NCBI GenBank assembly: GCA_951406725.2
Contig: OX597817.1
Location: 45,012,001-45,076,000, forward strand
Length of the DNA stretch: 64,000 nt
Origin: Octopus vulgaris
Lineage: Eukaryota
Direction: 5' to 3'
Shown here one piece after another: positions 5,936 to 60,545 of this stretch. The translations under genes and the position numbers were made by a program. The notes under the pieces are model-generated. The model saw nothing but the letters and a program-made list of their open reading frames with translations, did not search any database and had not been told where the DNA came from. Numbering within the stretch: the stretch's first letter is position 1; each line of letters opens with the position of its first letter.

Positions 5936-6100
5936 ACGCAGGAGTGGCTGTGTGGTAAGTAGCCTTCATACCAACCACATGGTCCCGGGTTCAGTCCCAT
6001 TGGGTAACACCTTGGGCAAGTGCCTTCTACTATAGCCTCGGGCCGACCTAAGCCTTGTGAGTGGATTTGGTAAACAGAAACTGAAAGAAGCTCGTCGTAT
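5936..6100 (+). mobile_element. SINE family A, 5' half (tRNA-derived head); interrupted by the PLE
   Basis: GCAGGAGTGGCTGTGTGGTAAG...GGGTTCAGTCCCA (A/B-box-like)...CCTTGGGCAAGTG...GAAACTGAAAGAAG; homologous to 17010-17175. Confidence 0.85.
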
Positions 6101-6293
6101 ATATGTATATGTATATATATATATACATATATATATATATATTGAAATGGATAAATGAATTATCTTGTTACGGATTATTCAAAATTTAACCGATACCTGG
6201 GTAGCAAAAATCACAACAGAAAAAGCACGATTGAGGTTACGACCATGGGGAGTCGCAACCGTGCCTTAGTGCAGATAATTGAAGTTTTATATA

Positions 6294-6696
6294 TTTAGTG
6301 AAGGGAAGAAATGGAGCTGAACGAAGATTCTACAAAATTCCTTTTTTATTATTTTCTACATATGTTTCAAAGGCTGCAAATTTCCAAATTCGGATTGAAT
6401 AAGGATAACATTTTGCAGCTTTCTCTTCAGGAAAATCCAGGAATTTAAATCTCCAAACAAATGCGCAGCAAGCTATTCGAACAAAGCGCTCCCTAGGAGC
6501 CCATGGTATGGCACAAAACTGTCTCTCAATGTGCGTTGACGTCAGGGTGGGTGAAGGCCGACGAAAAAGTCCGTTGGAATAAATCGAGGTCAAACTGCGG
6601 TTAAATTTGGTAGGGGAAGAATTACAGAAAACCAAAGGGTGTGAATATATTCTGTATAACTAATGTTAATGAAAGCTATCTTATTTGGGTGTGAGA
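6294..6696 (-). repeat. Left arm of ~403-bp inverted repeat (inverted pLTR)
   Basis: Reverse complement of 8297-8698 with about 5 differences by eye. The twin ORFs 6330-6635(-) and 8358-8876(+) share near-identical translations. Confidence 0.97.
6351..6436 (-). ncRNA. Type I hammerhead ribozyme (minimal, palindromic stem III)
   Basis: Minus strand reads ATTTTC-CTGAAGA-GAAAGCTGCAAA...TTTGCAGCCTTT-GAAAC-ATAT-GTA-GAAAAT. Stem I is 6 bp, stem II about 11 bp, the cleavage triplet is GUA, and ACATATGT is palindromic. Confidence 0.85.
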
Positions 6697-6750
6697 CAAC
6701 ATTCTGTCATGAGGATAGGGCCGGCTACAATAACATAAATAATTTAAGTA

Positions 6751-7989
6751 GTGAGGAATGTCGAAACAAGTACATCTAGAATAAATTTAGGTAACATAAA
6801 TAATTTGCGGTCCAGGGGAGGCCATAGTAAGCCAAAACCTATTATTCAACCTAGAAATACCCACCTTAATGTCAGAGTTGACTCCCCGACCCAGTACAAA
6901 AACAGGAATAAATATATTTGGTTTGTAATTCCCTTTGGTAAACAAATAAGATCTAATCTACCTCTGCAGTTTCGCCAAGCCATTGCCAGTAATTTTCCCA
7001 GAAATTCCAGGTATTACGCCACTGTTAACTCACACGAAGTTAGGATAGCCTTCTCCAACACTAAAAATCTCTCACAGATAATTTCCTCCCATAACAATAA
7101 GCTGCTAAATAAGACCCTCTTACCCTCGTTCGGTGACGCAGCTCCGTCTAATGCCAGAATAACGCGCAGTAATAATAATAATAATAATAATAATAATAAT
7201 AATGATAATAGAACCGGCACAGAGATTAGCAATCTCCATACCAGCCATGGAGTTAATAATAGGAATAAGGATAGGAGCAATGGTGACGACACTAACGTTA
7301 GTAATGGTAATAGGGATGAGAGCACTGTCCGAGTCATTAATGTAGAGAGTCCCATTAACACTTTTAGCAACGGTTTTGACAATAGTAGCATTACGGACAT
7401 TAGCAATCACAGTGATCTCAGTGTCAGGGAATATACAGGTGATATTCCATTAAATAGTATTGATAATGGGGTGTATAATGTCGAAGACAGCCGCAGTTCT
7501 CACAATCATCATAGTAATAAGAACGCCGTATTAATATCGGAAGCCAATCCCAATAGAATAAGGTTCTTATCTAGTAATTCCAAGATTAAAAATGCCATTT
7601 ACCAATGCAGAGTTTATACTGAATCAGATGTCTACTTGTATATCGGAGCGTCATCATCAAAATTGGCCGTGAGAATATCGAACCACTTCACAACATTTCG
7701 CGATTTTAGAAAACAACACGCGACCGGACTAAGTAAATTAATCTGGCGTTTGAAGAACGCGAATTCAGCATTTAGACTGGAATGGTCGATTTTATCGGTG
7801 TCTGTACCGTTTGATAGAGGCAAAAGAATCTGTAATCTCTGCAACTCTGAACTTTTTCACATTTTGTTCGCCCGAGGGCAGCTAGTTAACGCGATTTTGC
7901 AAAACTCTTTTAGATGTCCCCACTGGAGGCGGCACACATTTTCTTGCATACAATTGAAGCCTAAGATAATTAACACCTTGATGTCCTAA
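6751..7989 (+). CDS. C-terminal part of PLE polyprotein: post-RT segment, Asn-rich linker, GIY-YIG endonuclease (no in-frame ATG at the start, RT core absent)
   Basis: 412-codon stop-free ORF. RNKYIWFVIPFGKQIRSNL...VRIAFSNTKNLSQIISSHNNKLL resembles the PLE post-RT segment (IIWFNPP...SHNKKIL type). NAIYQCRV..YLYIGASSSKLAVRISNH is the GIY-YIG motif. The end reads LSKLIWRLK...LEWSIL...CNLCNSE...LVN...RCPH. Confidence 0.85.
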   Translation: MRNVETSTSRINLGNINNLRSRGGHSKPKPIIQPRNTHLNVRVDSPTQYKNRNKYIWFVIPFGKQIRSNLPLQFRQAIASNFPRNSRYYATVNSHEVRIAFSNTKNLSQIISSHNNKLLNKTLLPSFGDAAPSNARITRSNNNNNNNNNNNDNRTGTEISNLHTSHGVNNRNKDRSNGDDTNVSNGNRDESTVRVINVESPINTFSNGFDNSSITDISNHSDLSVREYTGDIPLNSIDNGVYNVEDSRSSHNHHSNKNAVLISEANPNRIRFLSSNSKIKNAIYQCRVYTESDVYLYIGASSSKLAVRISNHFTTFRDFRKQHATGLSKLIWRLKNANSAFRLEWSILSVSVPFDRGKRICNLCNSELFHILFARGQLVNAILQNSFRCPHWRRHTFSCIQLKPKIINTLMS

Positions 7990-57790: not shown

Positions 57791-58116
57791 ATATTCATTT
57801 ATACTTTACATCAGGTTTATCTATGCTGCCGAAATATCGAGTATAGCGCTCTTCATGTACAACTCATCCGGTCTACGTCGAAAATTATTGCTAAATGCTC
57901 CAGTTTCACAGTAAGCACAAAAATCTCCGGTTATATGGCAGCCCCACAAGTCAACATGAACAATGGTAAGCCATTCCATGCAACTTGATGCTGTTCAATT
58001 TCTATCAACGTATGCCATAAATTCATTTCCTTCCTTGATATACCAACATTTTTTGTGTTTCTTACTTCAGGCAAATTTTCCACGGATATTTTATATTTTA
58101 GTCCTAAAATAAATAA

Positions 58117-58365
58117 ATGCATCCTTTTAAAGCCTAACCAGGCTCATGGGCCCAGTTTCCCGGTTCCTATGGCTGATGTGTTCCCCACCTGGACGGGACG
58201 CCAGTCCATCGCAGCGTTACTCCTTTTTGCCAGCTGAGTGGACTGGAGCAGCGTGAAATGAAGTGTTTTGCTCAAGAACACAACGCGTCGCCCAGTCCAG
58301 GAATCCAAACCACAATCTTACGATCATGATGCTGACACCCTAGCCACTAAGCCACGCGCCACCAC
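58117..58365 (-). mobile_element. SINE family C
   Basis: Reverse-complement homology to 13815-14120, with an approximate TSD (atattttagtcc / atattttactcc). Confidence 0.82.
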
Positions 58366-59837
58366 ATATTTTACTCCCAGTTGACACTAATAATTTATTT
58401 TATGATTAATATATAGCACTCAACTTTAATACCAGAAACATCATCAAGACATTTTGCAGTTGCCCTTACGTTAGCTTTAACTTATATTCATACACTGGTT
58501 ACTATTAAACCATATTTTCTCCAGTCATTAAGCGAAGTATGAAGCTATCTAATTCTACCTGTCTGACTTCTTTTGGGAGGAGGATAGGCATCGATGTCCA
58601 TGTTGGTTGAGATAATCATTCTGTTACCATTAATCAAGTAACATTTCCACAGTCGGAATGGACTGAAATCTCTTGCAGCAGCTCTGATTCAAGTTTTCAT
58701 GGTAAATTTTATTAGTTGCACCAACTAAGCGTAATGTAGATTTGTCTTTGAAACTTGGGGGATAATGGTTATCTGGACCATTTTAACGTGAATAACTGTT
58801 CAACCAATAAGAAATTGTATGTGCTGGTCAGTGAAACAATTATTGTACTCTAAATTAAACTGTCTTGCCCCAGTTCAACCAAAAATAGATGATTTGTGCT
58901 TATCAATTAAATAAATATGACATTGTGAGTTATTTATGAAGATGTAATTCGAATGATCACTGGCTTCGAATAAACGAAACCCAGTGGCAATGGCGCAGAT
59001 CATTAGTTTTTGTAGACAACCAGCCACCGCTTTGTTTATGGGAGTAGTCTAGCGTTATGAATTAATTTTGTTTTCCTGATTGGAATTCTTTTTATGAAAT
59101 AAAATCTATTTATAAGCTTTGTTATCTAAGAAAATATATTTTCTGCTAAATCTACTAATCGATTATATAAGTTGGGTTTTTGCAGTTCATTTTACGGATC
59201 ACAATGGACCTTCAAGCACACCCTTGTTAGAAACCTAGTCCGTGACATTATAATTATAAGCTCATAGTCTATAAAGTTTAGTTTGTTTCTGAAAAAGCGA
59301 AATTCACCTAATAAGGCGTTAAATTTGTTGTTAATTAATTACCTCAAGATATAAACTCTGACTATTTGGTCACAAAATTATTGTCCGAAATATCGTGTTT
59401 TGTGTTTTTCATATTCAAAATAGGGCAGTTCTATCAAAGTGTTTGCTCTGTCACTTAAAACCATTTATGATTTACCTCCAGTAATACATGCAATATTACA
59501 GTAATTTAGTTTATAATACAAACAAGCCTGAATGAGGATGTAAGAAGCCAGTTTTCTAACTACCTGCTTTCAGCTGCAGTCTCTCAGAAGTGGACCATGG
59601 GCAAATGGCTTGTAATAACACCCCAGACCAATGCTTTGTGTGTAAATTTAGTAGACGGAAATTTTGTTGAAGCCTCTATATGCGTACACTAACAAACACT
59701 CATACACACTCACACACATAATTAAATGTAACTGAAAAGAAAGGGGTGTTACGTGATGATCCGTTGTTGTTGAGCATTTGGAAGACTATTGCAGGGCTCC
59801 AAGCAAACATAATGGTGAAATGCGCGTATGAACTACT

Positions 59838-60545
59838 ATATAAACCTCGGGCCGACCAAACTATTGTGAGTGGATTTGGTAGACGGAAACTGGAAGACAC
59901 CTGTCGTATATATACATTGTCCAAATTTACAAAAAAAACAAAAAAGACTAAGACAAGTGTAGGAACAACAAACAGGTGTATTAGTTTAGCGGTCGGGAGA
60001 AACGGAAATATCTTTTACATTTAGAGACTACGTTCTTCGACAGAAATGAATAAGAGGAAAAATGGAGAGAGAAAAACTGTGTAGATTTCAGCGCTCCATA
60101 AATACATACATGTATAAGTATATATATGCATATCTATCTATTTATCTATCTATCTGTCACTTTCTCTCTCTATCTCTCTGTATTCATATATATATATATT
60201 TATATATACATATGTATACACACAAACACAAACACACACACACACACACATATATATATATATATATAAATATATATATATATATATATACACATATATA
60301 TATATATGTGTGTGTGTGTATGTGTGTGTGTGTGTGTGTGTGTTTTACTTCGAATTTGTCAACTCGGCCCATCTCGTAAAGATCGGCATTGATTCGCTTA
60401 CGTCACCGTAATTTAGCATCTTGGTGTAAGCGACCTATAGAATAAGTACTTAAGTTTAGCAAAATTAGTATAGGAGTCAATTTGTTTGACAAAACTTTCA
60501 ACGCAGTGCCACAAATTGGCTACATTCCAACGACTTAAAAATAAA
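59838..60545 (+). mobile_element. Older SINE family A copy with insertion at ~59917-60100
   Basis: Partial head (CCTCGGGCCGACCAAA...GTAGACGGAAACTG) and a diverged tail at 60340-60545. Confidence 0.65.

Follow-up and report, generated by a model that had tools for sequence, protein, structure and literature searches.

Penelope-like elements (PLEs) of the endonuclease-bearing (EN+) clades are described as targeting (TA)n and as leaving inverted 5'-truncated copies, tails and hammerheads; the Hydra clade is reported from Mollusca, and the tail of Naiads is given as 30-40 bp (Craig et al. 2021, PMC8557442). The hammerheads of metazoan PLEs are minimal type I motifs with a helix II of 7-8 bp, mostly single motifs from truncated PLEs (PMC4209133), and non-LTR (long terminal repeat) retrozymes are presented as non-autonomous PLE derivatives (PMC7229834; bioRxiv 10.64898/2026.07.22.740005). 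Among short interspersed nuclear elements (SINEs), the Haliotis MESC SINE has an internal (CA)n, and octopus OR2 is given as a CORE SINE (PMC4758252). Here we analysed 64 kb of the 2.8-Gb genome of Octopus vulgaris (contig OX597817.1, positions 45,012,001 to 45,076,000; hereafter the window), in which a SINE family, SINE A, carries a central TA tract that is interrupted by inserts. The initial annotation proposed that this tract is a recurring landing pad for ribozyme-bearing elements, that TA-targeting PLE endonucleases colonise it, and that small hammerhead RNAs hitchhike on them. Our literature search, judged from the search results alone, brought up no publication in which a SINE tract serves PLEs as a landing pad.

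Our analysis points to ordinary nesting. We put at about 85% the probability that the PLE families and their likely riders sit in (TA)n genome-wide, and that the SINE A tract is hit by such nesting rather than serving as a special landing pad. The SINE is likely passive, neither attracting nor carrying its passenger. It appears incidental because the insertion rate is no higher than in matched tracts and no recurring composites were found in the samples. For the rate, 160 places of 10 kb were drawn at random on contigs C1-C25 with conservative length bounds, and the first 140 (L039-L178; 1.4 Mb) were used; thresholds were set by the analyst, and three hammerhead-type library entries were derived from the window itself. 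In this sample, 144 of 1080 TA zones touch a SINE half, as do 227 of 2160 zone sides (10.5%) and 6.6% of TA bases. Of all TA targets, about 7-13% come from SINE A, a share of use to repeat annotators, which supports the view that this SINE harbours TA tracts and disperses them. Hammerhead-type ends, assigned by similarity, occur at 2 of 144 SINE tracts versus 74 of 936 other TA tracts (p = 0.002), and their rate is lower in SINE tracts in all four length strata, although no single stratum is significant. An insertion rate above that of length-matched non-SINE TA tracts, as the landing-pad proposal had implied, was thus seen in no stratum. A SINE lies on the far side of 2 of 79 hammerhead-type 3' ends, and none of the 42 complete hammerheads in the sample lies inside a paired SINE (0/42; three shuffles gave 0, 2 and 4 motifs). 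When any recurrent repeat end is counted, 25 of 227 SINE sides bear one, versus 262 of 1300 unique-flank sides.

Other genomic copies of the five families found inside the split SINEs gave a similar picture. From the 150 best matches (40 scored of 1384-3071 candidates), six belonging to the window itself and 15 without a TA zone in range were removed, leaving 129 ends. Nine of these face a SINE half, versus 227 of 2160 background sides (odds ratio 0.64, 95% confidence interval (CI) 0.32-1.27) and a TA-length-weighted 6.6%. In all five families, the majority of the other copies terminate in TA that is not part of the SINE. Pooled with the random sample, SINE-facing ends number 11 of 208 (5.3%, CI 2.7-9.3%), a share lower than the per-side background and level with the length-weighted 6.6%.

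SINE A pairs were found in the window by BLAST with the copy at 17010 as reference; an unmasked self-BLAST was dominated by TA matches. Seven same-strand pairs of head and tail were recovered, and five of the seven hold a non-simple insert inside the central TA tract, which bears out the splitting reported by the initial annotation. Copy 1 (+) has its head at 5934-6100, with tRNA-like A- and B-box motifs and core, and its tail at 8787-8979. Copy 4 (-) has its tail at 26559-26763 and its head at 27147-27298, without the first 15 bases and without a detectable A box, and copy 5 (-) has tail and head at 33874-34033 and 34727-34890. The head of copy 6 (+; 55926-56080) is diverged and its tail lies at 56752-56932, while copy 7 (+) consists of the core only, without the tRNA-like part (59833-59909), and a weak tail remnant (60398-60450; a 53-bp match at 74%). 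The two intact copies, both taken as empty controls by the initial annotation, differ: the one at 17010-17495 (+) has a 78-bp pure TA tract, and the one at 20789-21168 (-) has a short impure tract and (TA)n flanking both sides. Only the former is a fair empty control, because the internal tract of the latter is without any (TA)4 run. Both box motifs are present in three of the seven heads, as judged with loose patterns, and the boxes in the tRNA-like head point to a putative tRNA-derived SINE. SINE A resembles microsatellite-bearing tRNA-derived SINEs in its tRNA-like head, shared core and expanding internal microsatellite (PMC4758252). Two or three SINE A heads also occur in tandem ahead of one tail at other loci (L021:2420-2980, L037:355-679 and L268:2354-2656). 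SINE A may correspond to OR1/OR2.

The outer ends of SINE A adjoin (TA)4 about three times as often as random positions do (34/173 and 28/148 versus 6.4% in L039-L178; also in the window at 20789-21168 and 55926), so SINE A itself leans to TA targets. This leaning would also suit a history in which a head-only and a tail-only SINE were inserted separately into TA tracts flanking a pre-existing PLE. Six copies examined showed no convincing exact target-site duplication other than TA, and for the split copies duplications could not be demonstrated, which fits such a history as well. However, head and tail are matched in order and strand in all five split copies, each half stopping at the tract. 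In addition, the insert at 26870-27125 is younger than its host SINE, because its genomic relatives are 98-100% identical, whereas the host halves are 86% identical to the reference copy. Separate insertion is therefore a reading to which we give almost no credence.

Several observations weigh against ordinary nesting as a full account of the window. Of the 131 sampled SINE heads that had 3.5 kb of room, 91 could be paired with a tail (79 empty and 12 split) and 40 were unpaired; with any room, 16 of 149 were split. The five of seven in the window differ from the 12 of 91 in the sample (Fisher p = 0.0015), although the window was chosen after the fact. It holds about 10 hammerhead-type insertions (mean, 4.3 per 64 kb), five of them in SINEs, and the probability of at least five in SINEs given 10 insertions is between 0.007 and 0.00008 according to the rate assumed. 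Simulation expects 0.4-19 such windows genome-wide at rates of 7-14%, and fewer at the pooled 5.3%. The sampled rates are themselves subject to bias: the family loci are best matches, some paired ends represent one insertion, and L230 and L231 are one duplicated locus. Non-SINE tracts may include TA created or lengthened by insertions, which would inflate the comparison rate, and the 40 of 131 heads for which no tail was found mean that the split rate may approach 20-27% by the analyst's estimate. We attribute the local five of seven, without proof, to a PLE-rich window, long tracts and the selection of a striking window; the long tracts and the after-the-fact selection help, yet do not clearly suffice. 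By eye, the inserts in the 16 sampled split SINEs are mostly other short repeats, with one simple sequence and one hammerhead-type insert. The commonest is an ATG-tailed short repeat (4/16; L119, L126, L107 and L086).

The same excess would be expected of a regional or subset hotspot, in which the internal tract is preferred in some domains, such as open chromatin, or in copies with an expanded tract, while the genome average stays flat. Half of the roughly 10 hammerhead-type insertions in the window lie in SINEs, and pure TA runs of at least 36 bp occur in five of the seven SINEs there; for the 83 intact tracts of the sample that contain (TA)4, the median is 12 bp. The fraction of sampled copies that are split also rises with tract length (3/44, 3/27, 3/9, 2/10 and 1/1). 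Nevertheless, in the sample long SINE tracts are not hit more often than long non-SINE tracts (1/36 versus 32/252; 1/24 versus 15/163), and the length of a tract next to an insert may have resulted from the insertion rather than caused it. We regard a hotspot of this kind as unlikely. The more specific proposal, that TA-seeking Penelope endonucleases have true hotspots in a subset of SINE A copies, either those with an expanded tract or those in particular chromosomal domains, and that the window is such a domain, is marginally less likely still. If it were true, the SINE would steer Penelope landing sites, PLE target choice would become testable in a natural genome, and one SINE family would locally seed and expose targets for a guild of ribozyme-bearing elements.

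The nature of the inserts is consistent with nesting by TA-seeking elements. The five comprise two 5'-truncated ends of GIY-YIG PLEs, two likely non-coding tandem-unit riders and one degenerate-core 3' end. That the inserts are of PLE type and seek TA agrees with the two coding families: a (TA)4 zone lies within 170 bp at 28 of 28 ends of the 2.5-kb PLE family, and within 200 bp at 28 of 29 ends of the second family, E255.

The insert in copy 1 is a 5'-truncated GIY-YIG PLE (6143-8698, +) with an inverted 5' piece. Its start had been placed at 6294; the 152 bp at 6143-6294 are the family's own terminal extension, which is common to other copies. The inverted piece (6295-6696, -) is a 402-bp copy of the PLE 3' end, 98.8% identical to 8297-8697. 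A 413-aa open frame (6748-7989, +) contains, by motif reading, the truncated end of the reverse transcriptase (RT) region, a linker and a GIY-YIG endonuclease. Relatives of this family have open frames of up to about 900 aa, and the frame in L307, at least 846 aa long, has RT motifs including YRDD and DKT and a C-terminal AIY..YIG. In this family CCHH is absent, CxxC and CxH motifs surround conserved E and N, and the long Asn-rich linker is without CxCX5C. No Pfam family was matched by the window frame or two relatives, and none of 233 candidates passed when the GIY-YIG part was searched among longer proteins, which is weak evidence. Judged by its motifs, the 2.5-kb family has the organisation expected of EN+ PLEs, with a single open reading frame in which a predicted RT is followed by a C-terminal GIY-YIG. 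Further EN+ PLE features of the inserts are truncation at the 5' end, partial copies in inverted or tandem arrangement, a terminal tail and a putative type I hammerhead near the 3' end.

The insert in copy 4 (26870-27125, -) had been read as a small hammerhead RNA element of 255 bp. It is instead the last 256 bp of a young protein-coding GIY-YIG PLE family, E255. Its genomic relatives extend upstream, often as inverted pairs, and at L031, L032 and L034 the continuation runs into a GIY-YIG frame. In the post-RT part examined, the E255 parent carries a CxCX5C linker, CCHH is absent, and CxxC and CxH flank conserved E and N. In four independent places (27125 in the window; L002; L009/L019; L300), truncation or inversion of E255 has occurred at almost the same base, and these near-identical breakpoints suggest a preferred stop point.

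Both families resemble the Hydra clade (PMC8557442) in having a C-terminal GIY-YIG that lacks CCHH, together with CxxC and CxH motifs, hammerheads, (TA)n as target, terminal tails and 5'-truncated copies in inverted form. The DKT that replaces DKG in L307 and the CxCX5C linker of the E255 parent are further likenesses. In contrast, the 2.5-kb family is without CxCX5C and has the long Asn-rich linker, and its extension of about 150 bp differs from the 30-40-bp tail of Naiads. By these motifs we file both families as Hydra-like rather than as members. An assignment to Neptune was dropped on comparison with the Hydra clade definition. The families may already appear in the supplements of PMC8557442.

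The insert in copy 5 (34135-34704, -) is a 482-bp, apparently non-coding unit with a 74-bp partial tandem and is likely a retrozyme-like, non-autonomous rider. Its relatives form permuted partial tandems and inverted pieces in which the hammerhead is conserved. The unit appears to be like non-LTR retrozymes (PMC7229834; bioRxiv 10.64898/2026.07.22.740005) in being non-coding and a few hundred bases long, with a single type I hammerhead in each unit and a head-to-tail arrangement. It differs in that most copies of the family are inverted pieces or partial tandems, and a direct tandem holding two hammerheads was seen in only one of 30 loci (L219). When a longer parent was sought, the matches were mainly to an unrelated repeat in the flank, and no coding parent was present in the flanks examined. 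When two PLE proteins served as tblastn queries against the three non-coding candidates (90 loci with 1.5-kb flanks), a single locus was matched (L216, away from the unit). In copy 6, the insert (56340-56627, -) is a fold-back fragment of a family of tandem units of about 435-470 bp, and this unit and the 482-bp unit look like two non-coding riders. The half hammerhead annotated there is not the family's ribozyme, because the complete motif sits in a part that the window copy lacks; no hammerhead is present in the insert. The insert in copy 7 (59917-60100, -) comes from the 3' end of an abundant family that abuts TA; its hammerhead-like core is degenerate and in the family mostly reads CTGTNGA, and this copy is also without stem II pairing and GAAA. 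The family as a whole keeps the hammerhead-like stem and GAAAC, with mostly CTGTNGA for CTGANGA, a core that may be decayed or a variant (window 59960-60040 and 9566-9686; L269-L298).

A descriptor scan of the window for type I hammerheads, for which 30 shuffles each gave at most one match scoring at least 9, found four complete motifs, each scoring 11 and spread over three inserts. Two lie in the 2.5-kb PLE, at 6353-6434 (-), with a long helix II and a palindromic helix III, and in the 3' end at 8559-8640 (+); the others are in E255 (26908-26985, -) and in the 482-bp unit (34268-34327, -). A complete motif is thus present in these three inserts, but not in the insert at 56340, nor in that at 59917 with its degenerate core only. 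Minimum-energy folds support helix II for the PLE and 482-bp motifs, and do not support the full fold of the 256-bp motif; none shows the full hammerhead, and the ribozymes are putative, known here as motifs. An Rfam scan gave no hammerhead among the 150 matches listed of 228; those listed were microsatellite-driven miRNA and snoRNA matches below gathering scores. The motifs share with those of PMC4209133 a short helix I, a palindromic helix III, opposite-strand pairs and mostly single occurrence, and differ in their helix II region of 29-55 nt, as against 7-8 bp. The 42 complete motifs in the random sample come from many TA-seeking families and mostly have a very long helix II region; their density is about 30 per Mb (42 in 1.4 Mb), or about 8x10^4 if extrapolated.

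In ordinary nesting, the PLE endonuclease would nick (TA)n, and target-primed reverse transcription would start at the RNA 3' end and usually stop early. What most often remains would then be the 3' end with its hammerhead. The tandem units of 482 bp and of about 435-470 bp may borrow PLE enzymes, and some insertions would land inside SINE A by target sharing, as it is very abundant and has its own TA tract.

The initial annotation went further and proposed a three-tier system, in which SINE A tracts serve as dedicated landing pads genome-wide and the RNA polymerase III (Pol III) head of the SINE could transcribe or co-mobilise the ribozyme passenger. The five of seven split copies would suit such a system, and all three inserts with complete hammerheads hold a motif copy in the sense direction of the SINE. 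However, the other two inserts lie antisense to theirs, SINE tracts are not enriched in the sample or among family loci, and only three of seven heads have both boxes. Runs of four or more T end Pol III transcripts. Such runs lie ahead of each hammerhead in the direction of the SINE, while the two empty copies have none, so Pol III read-through into the ribozyme is disfavoured. Nor did recurring composites of SINE and insert appear in our junction searches and host-head comparison. The 5' junction pattern of E255 occurs twice in the genome. The second occurrence, L300, has a faint core-like stretch beyond TA by eye, which could be taken in favour of a composite, but its 3' end is different and BLAST gave no SINE match at that junction. 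Of the 40 candidates scored out of 406, the window copy alone spanned the PLE inversion junction. Where inserts belong to one family, the SINE heads that host them are 70-87% alike (11 pairs), versus a median of 85% for random pairs (quartiles 80-89%). L250, L252 and L240, considered as recurring composites, were ruled out by differing fold-back points and host heads 80-82% alike. Transcription or co-mobilisation by the SINE head is thus unsupported, and we consider the three-tier system highly improbable. In the contigs of four runs, no piece bridged a SINE-insert junction, a result that is uninformative on transcription and on empty alleles.

Beyond the split SINEs, the window has about five similar inserts outside SINEs, which the earlier reading had missed. 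The element at 9534-9745 (-) belongs to the same family as that at 59917 and lies in a non-SINE TA tract, providing an internal control. A TA-abutting element with a hammerhead-like motif by eye (20485-20640, +) has a relative at 63420-63579 (+); the others are at 23188-23250 and at 23402-23609 (-), the latter TA-bounded with a degenerate hammerhead-like core. A further TA-bounded insert of 71 bp lies at 20659-20729. The window also contains a second SINE-like family, partly in tandem (10977-11395, 29854-29989, 32278-32639 and 60899-61056). Outside the window, a 449-aa open frame lies at L037:2269-3615 (-), which we presume to resemble an acyl-CoA thioesterase or BAAT-type hydrolase. Finally, a long CAT/CGT trinucleotide tract in the window (28520-29020) yields poly-His, poly-Ser and poly-Ile frames and is likely non-coding.

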